DNA of 64,000 bases from Escherichia coli (lineage in GTDB: Bacteria > Pseudomonadota > Gammaproteobacteria > Enterobacterales > Enterobacteriaceae): NCBI RefSeq assembly GCF_024502345.1, contig NZ_JALDNN010000001.1; one strand, given 5' to 3'. The position numbers were made by a program, and so were the translations under genes. The notes beneath the pieces are model-generated. The model was not told where the DNA came from, made no database searches, and worked only from the letters and a program-made list of their open reading frames with translations. Below are positions 2,747 to 51,429 of the stretch, piece after piece; within the stretch, counting starts at the first letter, position 1; every line of letters starts with the position of its first letter.

Positions 2747-3634
2747 ATGTCATCATCCCGTCCGGTGTTCCGCTCGCGCTGGCTGCCTTATCTGCTGGTC
2801 GCGCCGCAGCTCATCATCACCGTTATCTTTTTTATCTGGCCTGCGGGCGAAGCGTTGTGGTACTCGCTACAAAGCGTCGATCCGTTTGGTTTCTCCAGCC
2901 AGTTTGTCGGCCTGGATAACTTCGTCACGCTGTTCCATGACAGCTACTATCTCGACTCCTTCTGGACGACGATAAAATTCAGCACCTTTGTCACCGTCAG
3001 CGGTTTGCTGGTATCGCTGTTCTTTGCGGCGCTGGTGGAGTACATCGTGCGCGGCAGCCGTTTCTATCAAACCTTAATGTTGCTGCCTTACGCCGTGGCT
3101 CCCGCCGTTGCCGCCGTATTGTGGATCTTCCTGTTTAACCCCGGTCGCGGGCTGATCACCCATTTTCTCGCGGAGTTCGGCTACGACTGGAACCACGCGC
3201 AAAACAGCGGTCAGGCAATGTTTCTGGTGGTGTTTGCCTCAGTATGGAAGCAAATCAGCTACAACTTCCTGTTCTTCTATGCCGCGCTGCAATCCATTCC
3301 CCGTTCGTTGATCGAAGCCGCAGCCATCGACGGTGCAGGGCCGATTCGCCGCTTCTTTAAGATTGCGCTGCCGCTTATCGCCCCGGTGAGTTTCTTCCTG
3401 CTGGTAGTGAACCTGGTGTATGCCTTCTTCGACACCTTCCCGGTGATCGACGCCGCCACGTCCGGCGGGCCGGTTCAGGCCACCACGACGCTGATTTATA
3501 AGATCTACCGCGAAGGTTTTACCGGACTGGATCTGGCTTCGTCTGCCGCACAGTCGGTGGTGTTGATGTTCCTCGTCATCGTGCTGACGGTGGTGCAATT
3601 CCGCTATGTAGAAAGCAAGGTACGTTACCAATGA
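2747..3634 (+). CDS. ugpA: sn-glycerol-3-phosphate ABC transporter permease
   Basis: 295-aa polytopic membrane ORF; synteny and recalled sequence. Confidence 0.95.
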
Positions 3635-4476
3635 TTGAGAACCGTCCGTGGCTGACGATATTCAGCCATACCATGCTGATCCTCGGGATCGCGGTGATCC
3701 TCTTCCCGCTGTACGTGGCGTTTGTCGCGGCGACGCTGGATAAACAAGCCGTCTACGCCGCGCCGATGACGCTAATCCCCGGCACGCATCTGCTGGAAAA
3801 CATCCACAACATCTGGGTAAACGGGGTAGGCACAAATAGTGCGCCGTTCTGGCGGATGTTGCTTAACAGCTTCGTGATGGCGTTCAGCATTACGCTCGGC
3901 AAAATTACCGTCTCGATGCTCTCGGCATTCGCCATTGTCTGGTTTCGTTTTCCGCTGCGTAACCTCTTTTTCTGGATGATTTTTATCACCCTGATGTTGC
4001 CGGTTGAAGTACGTATCTTCCCGACGGTGGAAGTCATCGCCAACCTGAAGATGCTCGACAGCTACGCAGGTTTAACGCTGCCGCTGATGGCCTCGGCGAC
4101 CGCGACGTTTCTTTTCCGCCAGTTCTTTATGACCCTACCGGATGAACTGGTGGAAGCCGCGCGGATCGACGGCGCGTCGCCAATGCGCTTCTTTTGCGAC
4201 ATCGTTTTTCCGTTGTCCAAAACTAATCTGGCGGCGCTGTTTGTGATCACCTTTATTTACGGCTGGAACCAGTATTTGTGGCCGTTGTTGATTATTACCG
4301 ACGTGGATCTCGGCACCACCGTGGCAGGGATCAAAGGGATGATCGCCACTGGCGAAGGCACCACGGAATGGAACTCAGTGATGGCGGCGATGTTGTTAAC
4401 CCTGATCCCACCAGTAGTGATTGTTTTAGTGATGCAGCGTGCCTTCGTGCGCGGCCTGGTCGATAGTGAGAAATAA
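3631..4476 (+). CDS. ugpE: sn-glycerol-3-phosphate ABC transporter permease
   Basis: 281-aa membrane ORF; ATGA overlap with the ugpA stop (3631-3634). Confidence 0.95.
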
Positions 4477-9098: not shown

Positions 9099-9254
9099 TT
9101 AAGATATCAGAATCTTATGATTCGGGTAAAATTCTAAATAAATCAACATGTCATTAAAATCATCATAGCCATTAGCTATTTCGGCTAAAATAGAGACTAC
9201 ATGTCTTCGGTCCATCTCACTTAAGGAGTGTAGTTCCGTTGTAAGTTTTTCCAT
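9099..9254 (-). CDS. yrhD: Small protein, 51 aa (YrhD-like), not on the supplied ORF track
   Basis: Hand translation of the minus strand from ATG at 9254 gives MEKLTTELHSLSEMDRRHVVSILAEIANGYDDFNDMLIYLEFYPNHKILIS then stop at 9099-9101. Length and position match my recollection of K-12 yrhD; below the 60-aa track cut-off. Confidence 0.5.
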   Translation of the reverse strand: MEKLTTELHSLSEMDRRHVVSILAEIANGYDDFNDMLIYLEFYPNHKILIS

Positions 9255-14150: not shown

Positions 14151-15146
14151 ATGAAAAAGAAAAGACCCGTACTTCAGGATGTGGCTGACCGTGTAGGCGT
14201 GACCAAAATGACGGTCAGCCGTTTTTTACGCAACCCGGAGCAGGTTTCCGTCGCTCTACGCGGCAAGATTGCCGCCGCTCTTGATGAACTGGGCTATATT
14301 CCCAATCGTGCGCCCGATATCCTCTCTAACGCTACCAGCCGGGCGATTGGCGTCCTGTTACCTTCTCTCACCAACCAGGTTTTCGCGGAAGTATTACGCG
14401 GAATCGAAAGCGTCACCGACGCGCACGGTTATCAAACCATGCTGGCGCACTACGGTTATAAACCGGAAATGGAGCAAGAACGCCTCGAATCCATGCTCTC
14501 ATGGAATATCGATGGACTGATCCTCACCGAACGTACCCACACGCCGCGCACCTTAAAGATGATTGAAGTGGCGGGGATCCCGGTGGTGGAACTCATGGAC
14601 AGCCAGTCGCCGTGCCTCGATATCGCCGTCGGTTTTGATAACTTTGAAGCGGCACGCCAGATGACCACCGCCATTATTGCTCGCGGGCATTGCCACATTG
14701 CCTATCTCGGCGCGCGTCTCGACGAACGTACTATCATCAAACAGAAGGGATACGAACAGGCGATGCTGGATGCAGGTCTGGTGCCGTATAGCGTGATGGT
14801 TGAGCAATCTTCTTCTTACTCTTCCGGTATTGAACTGATTCGCCAGGCGCGGCGGGAATATCCGCAGCTGGATGGCGTGTTCTGTACCAACGATGACCTG
14901 GCGGTCGGCGCGGCGTTTGAATGTCAGCGTCTGGGATTGAAGGTTCCTGACGATATGGCGATTGCCGGTTTCCACGGTCATGACATTGGCCAGGTGATGG
15001 AGCCGCGGTTAGCGAGCGTGCTGACGCCGCGTGAGCGGATGGGCAGTATTGGCGCTGAACGCCTGCTGGCGCGTATTCGTGGCGAATCTGTGACACCGAA
15101 AATGTTAGATTTAGGTTTCACCTTGTCACCGGGCGGATCTATTTAA
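14151..15146 (+). CDS. gntR: Gluconate operon repressor (LacI family)
   Basis: 331-aa ORF with N-terminal HTH (LQDVADRVGVTKMTVSRFL); synteny with gntKU. Confidence 0.95.
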   Translation: MKKKRPVLQDVADRVGVTKMTVSRFLRNPEQVSVALRGKIAAALDELGYIPNRAPDILSNATSRAIGVLLPSLTNQVFAEVLRGIESVTDAHGYQTMLAHYGYKPEMEQERLESMLSWNIDGLILTERTHTPRTLKMIEVAGIPVVELMDSQSPCLDIAVGFDNFEAARQMTTAIIARGHCHIAYLGARLDERTIIKQKGYEQAMLDAGLVPYSVMVEQSSSYSSGIELIRQARREYPQLDGVFCTNDDLAVGAAFECQRLGLKVPDDMAIAGFHGHDIGQVMEPRLASVLTPRERMGSIGAERLLARIRGESVTPKMLDLGFTLSPGGSI

Positions 15147-15225: not shown

Positions 15226-15254
15226 ATGTTACCGATAACAGTTACCCGTAACAT
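15226..15254 (+). promoter_or_regulatory. GntR operator palindrome upstream of gntK
   Basis: atgttaccgataacagttacccgtaacat is an inverted repeat (atgttac ... gtaacat) of the GntR operator type, about 30 bp upstream of the gntK start. Confidence 0.6.
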
Positions 15255-15284: not shown

Positions 15285-15812
15285 TTGAGCACGACTAACC
15301 ATGATCACCACATTTACGTCTTGATGGGCGTATCGGGCAGCGGCAAATCTGCGGTCGCCAGTGAAGTGGCGCATCAACTTCATGCCGCGTTTCTTGATGG
15401 CGATTTCCTCCATCCACGGCGCAATATCGAAAAAATGGCGTCTGGCGAACCGCTGAATGATGACGATCGCAAACCGTGGCTGCAGGCGCTGAACGACGCC
15501 GCGTTTGCTATGCAGCGCACCAATAAAGTGTCGCTGATCGTCTGTTCTGCACTGAAAAAGCACTATCGCGACTTGCTGCGTGAAGGTAATCCGAATCTCT
15601 CTTTCATCTACCTGAAAGGCGATTTTGATGTGATTGAAAGTCGCTTGAAAGCGCGCAAAGGCCATTTCTTTAAAACCCAAATGTTGGTGACGCAGTTTGA
15701 AACGCTGCAGGAGCCGGGTGCGGACGAAACCGATGTGCTGGTGGTGGATATCGATCAACCGCTGGAAGGTGTTGTGGCAAGCACCATTGAGGTTATTAAA
15801 AAAGGCAAATAA
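15285..15812 (+). CDS. gntK: Gluconokinase (thermoresistant), probable TTG start
   Basis: ORF track 15264..15812; recalled GntK starts MSTTNHDHHIYVLMGVSGSGKS, which corresponds to TTG at 15285 (175 aa). P-loop GVSGSGKS. Confidence 0.9.
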   Translation: MSTTNHDHHIYVLMGVSGSGKSAVASEVAHQLHAAFLDGDFLHPRRNIEKMASGEPLNDDDRKPWLQALNDAAFAMQRTNKVSLIVCSALKKHYRDLLREGNPNLSFIYLKGDFDVIESRLKARKGHFFKTQMLVTQFETLQEPGADETDVLVVDIDQPLEGVVASTIEVIKKGK

Positions 15813-15815
15813 GTA

Positions 15816-17156
15816 GTGACTACATTAACGCTTGTTTTAACAGCAGTAGGGTCTGTTTTACTGCTGCTGTTTTTAGTCATGAAGGCGCGTATGCACGCTT
15901 TCCTGGCTTTGATGGTGGTGTCCATGGGGGCTGGCCTTTTTTCCGGTATGCCGCTCGATAAAATCGCAGCGACGATGGAAAAAGGGATGGGAGGCACCCT
16001 CGGCTTCCTGGCGGTGGTTGTCGCCCTGGGAGCTATGTTTGGCAAGATCTTACATGAAACCGGCGCAGTCGATCAGATTGCCGTCAAAATGCTCAAATCC
16101 TTCGGTCACAGCCGCGCGCATTATGCCATCGGCCTTGCGGGGTTGGTCTGTGCGCTACCGCTGTTCTTTGAAGTGGCGATAGTTCTGCTGATTAGCGTTG
16201 CTTTCTCAATGGCGCGCCACACCGGTACGAACCTGGTGAAGCTGGTAATCCCATTATTCGCAGGCGTGGCGGCAGCGGCGGCGTTCCTGGTGCCAGGGCC
16301 AGCGCCAATGCTGCTGGCATCGCAGATGAACGCCGATTTTGGCTGGATGATCCTGATTGGCCTGTGTGCGGCAATTCCGGGAATGATTATTGCCGGGCCG
16401 CTGTGGGGTAATTTCATCAGCCGCTACGTGGAGTTGCATATTCCTGACGACATCAGCGAACCGCATCTCGGCGAAGGCAAAATGCCATCTTTCGGATTCA
16501 GCCTGTCGCTGATCCTGTTGCCGCTGGTGCTGGTGGGGCTGAAAACCATTGCCGCGCGTTTTGTGCCAGAAGGCTCTACCGCTTACGAATGGTTCGAGTT
16601 TATTGGTCATCCGTTTACCGCGATTCTGGTTGCTTGTCTGGTAGCGATTTATGGCCTGGCAATGCGTCAGGGCATGCCAAAAGACAAAGTGATGGAGATT
16701 TGCGGTCACGCGCTGCAACCGGCGGGGATCATTCTGCTGGTGATTGGTGCAGGCGGCGTGTTCAAACAGGTGCTGGTTGACTCTGGCGTAGGTCCGGCAC
16801 TGGGCGAAGCGTTAACTGGCATGGGCCTGCCGATTGCTATCACCTGCTTCGTGCTGGCAGCTGCAGTGCGCATCATTCAGGGTTCTGCCACCGTAGCCTG
16901 TTTAACGGCGGTAGGACTGGTGATGCCGGTTATTGAACAACTGAACTACTCCGGTGCGCAAATGGCGGCGCTGTCGATTTGTATCGCTGGTGGTTCGATT
17001 GTTGTCAGCCACGTTAACGACGCCGGTTTCTGGTTGTTCGGTAAATTTACCGGCGCGACCGAAGCCGAAACGCTGAAAACCTGGACCATGATGGAAACCA
17101 TCCTCGGCACTGTCGGTGCCATCGTTGGGATGATTGCGTTCCAGCTGTTGAGTTAA
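15816..17156 (+). CDS. gntU: Low-affinity gluconate transporter (GntP family), GTG start
   Basis: 446-aa polytopic ORF starting GTG at 15816, 4 nt after the gntK stop. Confidence 0.9.
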   Translation: MTTLTLVLTAVGSVLLLLFLVMKARMHAFLALMVVSMGAGLFSGMPLDKIAATMEKGMGGTLGFLAVVVALGAMFGKILHETGAVDQIAVKMLKSFGHSRAHYAIGLAGLVCALPLFFEVAIVLLISVAFSMARHTGTNLVKLVIPLFAGVAAAAAFLVPGPAPMLLASQMNADFGWMILIGLCAAIPGMIIAGPLWGNFISRYVELHIPDDISEPHLGEGKMPSFGFSLSLILLPLVLVGLKTIAARFVPEGSTAYEWFEFIGHPFTAILVACLVAIYGLAMRQGMPKDKVMEICGHALQPAGIILLVIGAGGVFKQVLVDSGVGPALGEALTGMGLPIAITCFVLAAAVRIIQGSATVACLTAVGLVMPVIEQLNYSGAQMAALSICIAGGSIVVSHVNDAGFWLFGKFTGATEAETLKTWTMMETILGTVGAIVGMIAFQLLS

Positions 17157-49176: not shown

Positions 49177-50493
49177 TCAAATCACCATATTCAGCAGCAG
49201 ACAGCCTACCAGACCGCACACCGAGATAATGGTTTCCAGCATCGACCAGGATTTGATGGTCTCGCCGATAGTCAGGTTAAAGTACTCTTTGAACAGCCAG
49301 AAGCCTGGATCGTTCACATGAGAGAAAATCACACTACCGGAACCAACCGCAATAACCATTAGCTCCGGGCTAACACCCGTCGTTGCAATCAGCGGTGCCG
49401 CGATACCACCCGCAGTGATTGCCGCAACGGTTGCGGAACCCAGCGCGATACGCAGTACGGCAGCAATCGACCAGGCCATCAGCAGCGGAGAAATGTTGGT
49501 TTCGTGCATCATGGAAGCAATGTATTTGTCCACGCCGCTGTCTACCAGCACCTGCTTGAACGCACCGCCACCACCGATGATCAACAGCATCATCGCAATG
49601 ATTTTGATGGAAGAAACCAGCGTGTCGTTAATCTGATCCATTGAACGACCACGGTTTAGACCAAAGGTGAACATCGCAATCAGCACGGCAATCAGCGTAG
49701 CCATTACCGGGTCACCGAGGAACTCCGCTACCGGCAGGAAAGCGTGACCTTTCGGCAGGATCATTTCGGCAATCGCACGCATCGCCATCAGTACTACCGG
49801 CACCAGAGAGGTCCAGACGCTGACGCCAAAGCTCGGCATCTCTTCTTCGCTGAAGGTTTTCGCGCTGTAGAGACCTTCCGGAATTGGCTTATCGATACCT
49901 TTCAACACGCGAGCGTAAACCGGACCGGCGAGAATCACGGTCGGGATTGCCAGAATAGTACCGTACAGCAGGGTTTTACCCATGTCGGCATTGAAAATGG
50001 TGGCAATCGCAGTCGGACCCGGATGCGGTGGCAGGAAGCCGTGGGTCACAGACAGTGCAGCTGCCATTGGTACACCAACATACAGCAGTGGAATATTCGC
50101 AGAAGCCGCGATGGTAAACACCAGCGGCAGCATCAGCACAAAGCCCACTTCATAGAACAGGGCAAAACCAACGGTAAAACCGGTCAGTACCACCGCCCAC
50201 TGGATGTGTTTTTTACCAAATTTGGCAATCAGCGTGGTGGCGATACGTTGTGCGCCACCGCAGTCTGCCAGCATTTTGCCCAGCATTGCGCCAAAACCCA
50301 TGATCAGGGCAAGGCTACCGAGCGTCCCGCCGACACCGGCTTTGATGGAGCCAATAACTTTATCCAGCGGCATTCCTTGCATTAATCCAACAGCAAGCGC
50401 CACGAGGACGAGAGCGATGAAGCCGTTCATTTTGAAGCGGATCATCAGGAGTAATAACAAGATTACACCGATAGCAACAATGACTAATGGCAT
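49177..50493 (-). CDS. gntT: High-affinity gluconate transporter (GntP family)
   Basis: 438-aa polytopic ORF; paralogous to gntU in this window. Confidence 0.95.
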   Translation of the reverse strand: MPLVIVAIGVILLLLLMIRFKMNGFIALVLVALAVGLMQGMPLDKVIGSIKAGVGGTLGSLALIMGFGAMLGKMLADCGGAQRIATTLIAKFGKKHIQWAVVLTGFTVGFALFYEVGFVLMLPLVFTIAASANIPLLYVGVPMAAALSVTHGFLPPHPGPTAIATIFNADMGKTLLYGTILAIPTVILAGPVYARVLKGIDKPIPEGLYSAKTFSEEEMPSFGVSVWTSLVPVVLMAMRAIAEMILPKGHAFLPVAEFLGDPVMATLIAVLIAMFTFGLNRGRSMDQINDTLVSSIKIIAMMLLIIGGGGAFKQVLVDSGVDKYIASMMHETNISPLLMAWSIAAVLRIALGSATVAAITAGGIAAPLIATTGVSPELMVIAVGSGSVIFSHVNDPGFWLFKEYFNLTIGETIKSWSMLETIISVCGLVGCLLLNMVI

Positions 50494-50513
50494 GATTTAC
50501 CTGGCCTTTCATT

Positions 50514-50669
50514 TGTTATGGGTAACGTCAATTTTCTGACGACAAGCTCTAATTATCCCAATCGGGAACAGAGATATTGCGGCACCACGACTGATACCCA
50601 CTAAAACTAATTATTGTAGTCAGATGTCAGGAGTATGTTTGGTACCCATGTGAATGATACGGGTAACAT
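50514..50669 (-). promoter_or_regulatory. gntT promoter region with two GntR-operator-like sites
   Basis: tgttatgggtaacgtca (50514-50530) and atgatacgggtaacat (50654-50669) both contain the gttacccgtaac-type core seen in the gntK operator. Confidence 0.4.
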
Positions 50670-50797
50670 CTGGCGTTTGAGAATCACCAGAGCGGGGTAA
50701 ATTTAAATTATGAGAGGTTGGTCATATTATCGCGGGGAAACGAAGGGAGGGATTTGCCAAAGCAATGCTGCGCCAACGTCTGGCACATGTTCAACGT

Positions 50798-50853
<56 letters not shown>

Positions 50854-51429
50854 TTAGTAGTAGGAGTGTTCGCCGCGCTGGTGTTCGGTGAGATCGCGCA
50901 CACCTTTCAGCTCCGGGAATTCGTTTAGCAGCTGCTTCTCGATCCCTTCTTTCAGCGTCACATCGACCATGGAACAACCGTTACAGCCGCCGCCAAATTG
51001 CAGAATGGCGTAACCGTCTTCGGTGATTTCCATCAGTGAAACGCGACCACCGTGACCAGCAAGCTGTGGGTTGATCTGCGACTGCAGCATATACTCCACG
51101 CGCTCCATCAGTGGTGCATCGTCTGCCACTTTACGCATTTTGGCGTTAGGCGCTTTCAGTGTTAGCTGAGAACCCAACTGGTCGGTAACAAAATCGATCT
51201 CTGCATCTTCCAGGTAAGGAGCGCTTAACTCATCAACATACGCGGTCAGCAGGTCAAATTTCAGGGCAGTGTCGGTGGCTTCCACGGCATCCGGCGGACA
51301 ATAAGAAACACCACATTCAGCGTTAGGCGTGCCAGGGTTAATCACAAATACGCGGATTTGTGTCCCTTCTTCCTGGTTTGCCAGCAGTTTGGCAAAGTGC
51401 GCTTGTGCAGCATCGGAAATACGGATCAT
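50854..51429 (-). CDS. nfuA: Fe-S cluster biogenesis/carrier protein NfuA
   Basis: 191-aa ORF; C-terminal Nfu CxxC (GGGCNGCSM). Confidence 0.9.

Follow-up and report, generated by a model that had tools for sequence, protein, structure and literature searches.

The window, which is the whole 64-kb stretch of Escherichia coli DNA analyzed here, encodes two gluconate transporters, a gluconokinase, and a repressor of gluconate-utilization genes (table 1). The cognate repressor gene gntR is ∼35 kb from the sites that are the subject of this analysis. Those sites are located in the 360-bp spacer between nfuA and gntT (window positions 50494-50853), 5' of gntT. The region of 501 bases around them matches 5,424 of 5,426 complete E. 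coli genomes. The strain is not K-12; the best match is to O157:H7 strains, at 99.8% identity, where the RefSeq annotation reads "gntT: gluconate transporter" with nfuA as its neighbor.

Table 1. Features of the window, ordered by position; coordinates of minus-strand sites are given as they read along the gntT strand where the higher number comes first.
Feature	Position	Strand	Basis or remark
Match to the GntR consensus, ATTTTACCCGAATCAT, downstream of ggt	9117-9132	-	3 mismatches, 13.05 bits
gntR, repressor gene	14151-15146	+	NF011563 equivalog, 775 bits (cut-off 433)
First gntK(U) operator, ATGTTACCGATAACAG	15226-15241	+	
Second gntK(U) operator, CAGTTACCCGTAACAT	15239-15254	+	
gntK-gntU pair	15285-17156	+	
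gntK, gluconokinase	15285-15812	+	NF008583, 374 bits
gntU, low-affinity gluconate transporter, second transporter of the window	15816-17156	+	NF007781, 916 bits
gntT, high-affinity gluconate:H+ symporter, regulated gene	49177-50493	-	NCBIfam NF011560 equivalog, 931 bits, and RefSeq
O2, leader (internal) operator, ACGTTACCCATAACAA on the gntT strand	50528-50513	-	3 mismatches to consensus ATGTTACCCGTAACAT
Transcription start (G, 7th nt after the -10)	50647	-	inferred from promoter geometry
-10-like hexamer TATCAT, inside O1	50654-50659	-	promoter scan; named -10 in bioRxiv 10.1101/2023.01.10.523462
O1, promoter operator, ATGTTACCCGTATCAT on the gntT strand	50669-50654	-	1 mismatch to consensus ATGTTACCCGTAACAT
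-35-like hexamer TTCTCA	50678-50683	-	promoter scan; mean column conservation 0.91 across genera
CRP-like site TATGAccaaccTCTCA	50726-50711	-	2 mismatches to TGTGA-N6-TCACA core, read from the sequence
nfuA	50854-51429	-	ORF

An earlier note on this DNA had placed two sequences resembling GntR operators upstream of gntT, and both strings are found exactly where it put them, with tgttatgggtaacgtca at 50514-50530 and atgatacgggtaacat at 50654-50669 of the plus strand. Both fit the motif class of E. coli GntR, a 16-bp imperfect palindrome with half-sites TGTTAC and GTAACA. The core that they were said to have in common with the gntK operator is also present, as the second gntK(U) operator contains GTTACCCGTAAC exactly. 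The distance between O1 and O2 at gntT in the window is 141 bp.

The two sites are not equivalent in position. The sole sigma-70-like promoter that a promoter scan found on the gntT strand is TTCTCA-18-TATCAT (50683-50654), and its -10-like hexamer makes up the last six bases of O1. Relative to the start inferred at 50647, O1 extends from about -22 to -7 and O2 from about +120 to +135 with its center at +127.5, such that one site overlaps the -10 and the other is ∼125 nt into the transcribed leader. O2 is also 20–35 nt 5' of the gntT ATG, where it adjoins the ribosome-binding region. A site at the promoter -10 together with a site in the leader is compatible with repression of a gluconate-utilization gene. 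Conditional on the same inferred start, the CRP-like site is centered at -71.5. Peekhaus and Conway are said to have reported, in 1998, one operator that overlaps the -10, another centered at approximately +120, and CRP at -71. We take the center of the CRP-like site to agree with the published position and O2 to be the published second operator, with its center here slightly off from that published. Activation of gnt genes by CRP-cAMP has been described (PMC2230225).

Both sites are already known, as the published GntR operator pair of gntT, O1 by its quoted sequence and O2, probably, by its position and sequence. A passage of one preprint, citing Peekhaus & Conway 1998, quotes O1 letter for letter as the "E. 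coli GntR operator (ATGTTACCCGTATCAT)" and gives TATCAT as the -10 (bioRxiv 10.1101/2023.01.10.523462). The same preprint reports that, with the O1 operator, control in a cell-free system depends on GntR and gluconate. According to a passage of another paper, which also cites Peekhaus & Conway, gluconate inhibits the binding of GntR to the gntT promoter, as does 6-phosphogluconate at higher concentrations (PMC2230225). In a recent study, GntR lowered the activity of a P_gntT reporter more than 5-fold, and in a strain whose gntR gene is inactive, the level of gntT transcript was altered by a factor of two or more (PMC13386637, 2026). Relative to the operators published for K-12 gntT (Peekhaus & Conway 1998, J Bacteriol 180:1777; Porco et al. 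1997), the gene is the same, O1 is letter-identical to the quoted operator, and nothing of substance differs in the window. The core of O2 matches a database-derived GntR consensus, TGTTACCCATAACA, which was compiled from RegulonDB/PRODORIC profiles (PMC2811016), at 13 of 14 positions. A search of literature text for the operator strings, with the primary mapping papers outside its reach, returned O1 only, and the match to the O2 core was that consensus table. The GntR regulog in Enterobacterales has already been reconstructed comparatively, in a study whose supplements give regulon sizes and no gntT site lists (PMC4052901).

The regulator is a LacI/GalR-family protein and not a winged-helix protein of the GntR/FadR family. 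The GntR of the window has a LacI helix-turn-helix domain (PF00356) and periplasmic-binding-protein-like domains (Peripla_BP), a search of it for the GntR/FadR winged helix-turn-helix (PF00392) gave no match, and E. coli GntR has been placed in the LacI/GalR family (PMC3877293; PMC4052901). The name common to the protein and to the GntR/FadR family is a coincidence of nomenclature. Therefore, matrices for the "GntR family" are the wrong tool, and the matrix used must be that of this protein. Likewise, the possibility that the gntT sites are GntR/FadR-family (PF00392) operators was ruled out, because the regulator carries PF00356 and no PF00392.

A second repressor may also be involved. The sites could be used also, or even mainly, by the paralogue IdnR (GntH) and not by GntR alone, a possibility that we regard as somewhat unlikely. 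IdnR is the closest paralogue of GntR, the GntR of the window scores 400 bits against the IdnR model, and GntR recognizes IdnR sites at idnK/idnDOTR (PMC4052901). Yet removing or restoring gntR alone shifts the activity of P_gntT more than 5-fold (PMC13386637), and the two-site layout is kept, with gntR-type motifs, in all of the Enterobacteriaceae species that were examined. Use by IdnR/GntH is plausible as an addition to, rather than a replacement for, use by GntR.

Within E. coli, the region is close to identical between the window and K-12 MG1655. A single SNP in the leader is the only difference in the stretch that begins at the CRP-like site and ends at the ATG, and operator mapping in K-12 therefore transfers directly; four further differences are upstream of the CRP-like site. 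Approximately 920 of the 5,424 E. coli genomes have an nfuA-gntT spacer allele that is ∼83–85% identical to that of the window (85% by BLAST; 82.5% by MAFFT). One genome with this divergent allele (NZ_CP051849.1) has no changes in O1, in O2, or in the block that extends from the CRP-like site to the -35. Matches to a short-query megablast of each operator plus flanks against the 5,426 E. coli genomes (3,981 and 4,503 genomes for the two queries) are not site-level counts, because an exact word of 28 nt is required and flank polymorphism in the divergent allele breaks that word. With the full spacer as the query, the region was recovered in 5,424 genomes.

Other features of the spacer also vary in E. 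coli. The divergent spacer is closer to that of E. albertii (87%), and NfuA and GntT have the same WP accessions in both alleles; the allele may be an ancient polymorphism or may have been imported by recombination. A REP-type palindrome is just 3' of nfuA (50800-50839, minus strand) and corresponds to a sub-threshold Rfam match to naRNA4 of 27.5 bits. In clinical isolate NZ_CM148320.1, an IS621-family (IS110-like) element is located at the point of the REP, ∼305 bp 5' of the gntT ATG; the CRP-like site and both operators are in a part of the spacer that is kept at 98.4% identity.

Across species, the sites are among the most conserved sequences upstream of gntT. A scan of one genome per species yielded 80 GntT loci, in which the motif has 145 matches within the upstream DNA (31.6 kb), whereas the gntT coding sequences (103.7 kb) contain none. 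Among the species in which nfuA and gntT are syntenic and for which upstream sequence was available, 27 of 27 keep both sites, and these include members of Escherichia, Salmonella, Citrobacter, Enterobacter, Klebsiella, Kluyvera, Kosakonia, Phytobacter, and Trabulsiella. Across the syntenic species, ATGTTACCCGTATCAT is 168–182 nt 5' of the ATG and (A/C)GTTACCCATAACA is at -34 or -35. One more Enterobacteriaceae locus (L026), which has gntT-malQ and for which the nfuA stretch is outside the sequence, showed O1 alone at three or fewer mismatches. When 28 nfuA-gntT-syntenic Enterobacteriaceae sequences were aligned, all 16 columns of O1 and 14 of the 16 columns of O2 were invariant, relative to 25 of 268 other upstream columns, whose mean column conservation is 0.64. 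No other invariant run within 300 bp 5' of gntT is as long as those of the two sites (16 bp for O1 and 13 bp, 50514-50526, for O2). In the CRP-like site, eight of 16 columns are invariant, including the TGAC and C.CA columns.

Conservation of this degree could in principle reflect something other than repression, with O1 kept as a -10 region and O2 kept as an mRNA element near the ribosome-binding site. We consider this very improbable. O1 does contain the -10 hexamer TATCAT, but the hexamer accounts for only six of the 16 invariant positions and not for the other 10. RNAalifold does pair UUACC in O2 with GGUAA just before the AUG, but these pairs never vary and thus provide zero covariation evidence. 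Furthermore, both blocks fit a palindrome that was derived independently, from gntK, edd, and idn sites. Other Enterobacterales carry the motif 114–274 nt 5' of the gntT ATG, and such different positions fit a protein-binding site and not a positional RNA element. Constraints on the mRNA near the ribosome-binding site could nonetheless be responsible for a part of the invariance of O2.

Motif scans separate the gntT sites from background. With the published GntR consensus, ATGTTACCCGTAACAT (PMC10450161), seven strand-matches at five loci were found in the 64-kb window at three or fewer mismatches versus 0.41 expected, and none of 100 dinucleotide-preserving shuffles reached seven. Two of the five loci are the sites at gntT, two are the overlapping sites at gntK, and the fifth is 9117-9132. 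To avoid circularity, the gntT sites were left out of the matrix, which was symmetrized and built from five non-gntT sites (two at gntK from the window, and two at edd and one at idnK/idnD from K-12). With this independent matrix, O1 reaches 20.0 bits and O2 reaches 18.7 bits, and they take third and fourth place among 63,985 positions, after the two gntK sites that were used to train it. Simulated 64-kb sequences (200, first-order Markov) had a best score that averaged 13.3 bits, and a mean of 0.005 positions per simulation scored 18.7 bits or more. The scan with a GntR matrix that the earlier note had suggested thus places both sites above, and not at, the level of background. The fifth-ranked position is the site at 9117. 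Its score is at the level of the best random match; it was rejected as a GntR site and is probably not one. That the gntT sites resemble the gntK operator by chance, and have no regulatory role, can be dismissed as negligibly probable: O2 has three mismatches to the consensus and a three-mismatch match of no evident function is also present at 9117-9132, but the rate of 0.41 per 64 kb amounts to ∼0.002 consensus matches per 360-bp spacer, the gntT sites score 18.7–20.0 bits versus a random-level 13.05 bits for the 9117 site, and both are invariant across ∼27 species in surrounding DNA with 64% mean column conservation.

We conclude, with a probability of roughly 95%, that O1 and O2 are the pair of GntR operators in the promoter-leader region of E. 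coli gntT. Of the features that define operators of this protein, sequence analysis showed the palindrome, a position suited to repression, a cognate repressor in the genome, and conservation in orthologous promoters. Co-regulation of both gluconate transporters by GntR, which the earlier note had proposed, is likewise supported in that the gntT sites match the gntK-operator palindrome far above background and both gntR and gntU are in the window.

The arrangement of operators differs between gntT and gntKU, despite a common repressor and a common 16-bp palindrome (Izu et al. 1997; Tsunedomi et al. 2003). The gntK(U) operators overlap at a 13-bp offset, 31–59 nt 5' of gntK, whereas those of gntT in Enterobacteriaceae are split between the -10 and the leader, 141 bp apart in the window. 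An overlapping arrangement of ∼13 bp was previously described as functional (PMC4052901), and the first gntK site and the consensus have been quoted, and found to function, in work on mammalian gene switches (PMC10450161). The split arrangement is confined to Enterobacteriaceae with nfuA-gntT-malQ synteny. Outside the Enterobacteriaceae (Pantoea, Yersinia, Serratia, Dickeya, Rahnella, and others), most gntT loci have two GntR-like sites with a 14-bp offset, for example, ATGTTACCGGTATCAT followed by ATGATACCGGTAACAA, and a few have one or zero sites at three or fewer mismatches. Where a gnt neighbor was detected in these genomes, gntT adjoins gntR and/or gntK, not nfuA, and is often divergent from gntK.

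Spacing between O1 and O2 is also variable within the Enterobacteriaceae. Among genera, the centers are 133, 136, 139, 140, 141, 143, 144, or 147 bp apart, and in Pseudescherichia vulneris and Escherichia sp. ESNIH1 the spacing is 65 bp. The range covers every helical phase, and spacing is not phase-conserved. A loop between O1 and O2 is the usual assumption for repressors of the LacI family. As in the LacI/GalR systems lac (O1/O2/O3) and gal (OE/OI), gntT has a promoter operator and a second operator in the transcribed region, but its coverage of all helical phases is unlike what a strictly phased loop predicts. The variation in spacing is therefore mild evidence against such a loop and leaves room for the operators to act independently, for example, with one as a roadblock.

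Additional GntR-like sites were observed in some genomes. In Phytobacter, a soil MAG, and Enterobacter sp. Bisph1, a third site (xTGTTACCCGTATCTT) is exactly 120 bp upstream of O1, at -294 (locus L023), -296 (L028), and -298 (L049), counted from the gntT ATG. A related sequence, ATGTTACCGCGCAACAT, is present at a similar upstream place in Klebsiella and Kluyvera, and nothing comparable was found at this position upstream of O1 in E. coli. The edd locus of K-12 (L001) also has a pair of GntR-like sites, at 3578-3593 and 3800-3815 of that locus. One is a perfect palindrome, TTGTTACGCGTAACAA, 12–27 nt inside the edd coding sequence, and the other is upstream, in the zwf-edd spacer, so that the pair, like that of gntT, consists of one upstream and one internal site.

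The leader between the operators is predicted to form a long-range stem at its 5' end (GGUACCA/UGGUGCC; 50646-50640 with 50587-50581, minus strand). What supports this putative stem is covariation. Across 17 Enterobacteriaceae, 92.9% of cells are paired versus 18–55% in slid controls, and there are 16 double-change cells versus 5.3 in shuffles, with 0 of 500 shuffles reaching 16. When only one sequence was folded, the leader had a z-score of -0.63, which is unremarkable, and an Rfam scan of 50400-50900 found no leader RNA family, with only sub-threshold REP/naRNA4. A second, local hairpin, UCCC-GAUU-GGGA, is at about 50556-50567 (minus strand) and recurs with different sequences in other genera. 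The segment with the stem and hairpin is missing in Pseudescherichia, where the two-operator layout is present without it. If the stem is real, it could add a post-transcriptional layer to the control of gntT, for example, stabilization of the mRNA.

Taken as GntR operators, the sites suggest how gntT may be controlled, and the account with the best support is classical negative control. Without gluconate, GntR dimers would bind O1 and O2, for which binding is described in the literature. Because O1 overlaps the -10 hexamer, the bound repressor would block RNA polymerase at the promoter. O2, ∼125 nt past the start, may add to repression, either in cooperation with O1 or as a block to elongation. 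Gluconate, according to the literature, would release GntR from the DNA, and full expression of gntT would then also require cAMP-CRP at the site centered near -71.5. gntKU is under the same repressor and motif, which puts both gluconate transporters of the window in one regulon (GntI). In a more specific version, which we hold as tentative and consider doubtful, the operators would function without a phase-locked loop, O1 by occlusion and O2 separately, for example, as an elongation roadblock, and the covarying leader stem would contribute its post-transcriptional effect on top.

Control of gntT by GntR via two operators, with activation by CRP, has been part of the knowledge of E. coli since 1997–1998 and is already used in synthetic biology. 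The sites themselves bring no new biology, and the analysis shows that these operators can be recognized from raw sequence. It makes two small comparative additions. The split layout of operators is limited to Enterobacteriaceae with nfuA-gntT-malQ synteny, and the spacing of the operators is not conserved in phase.
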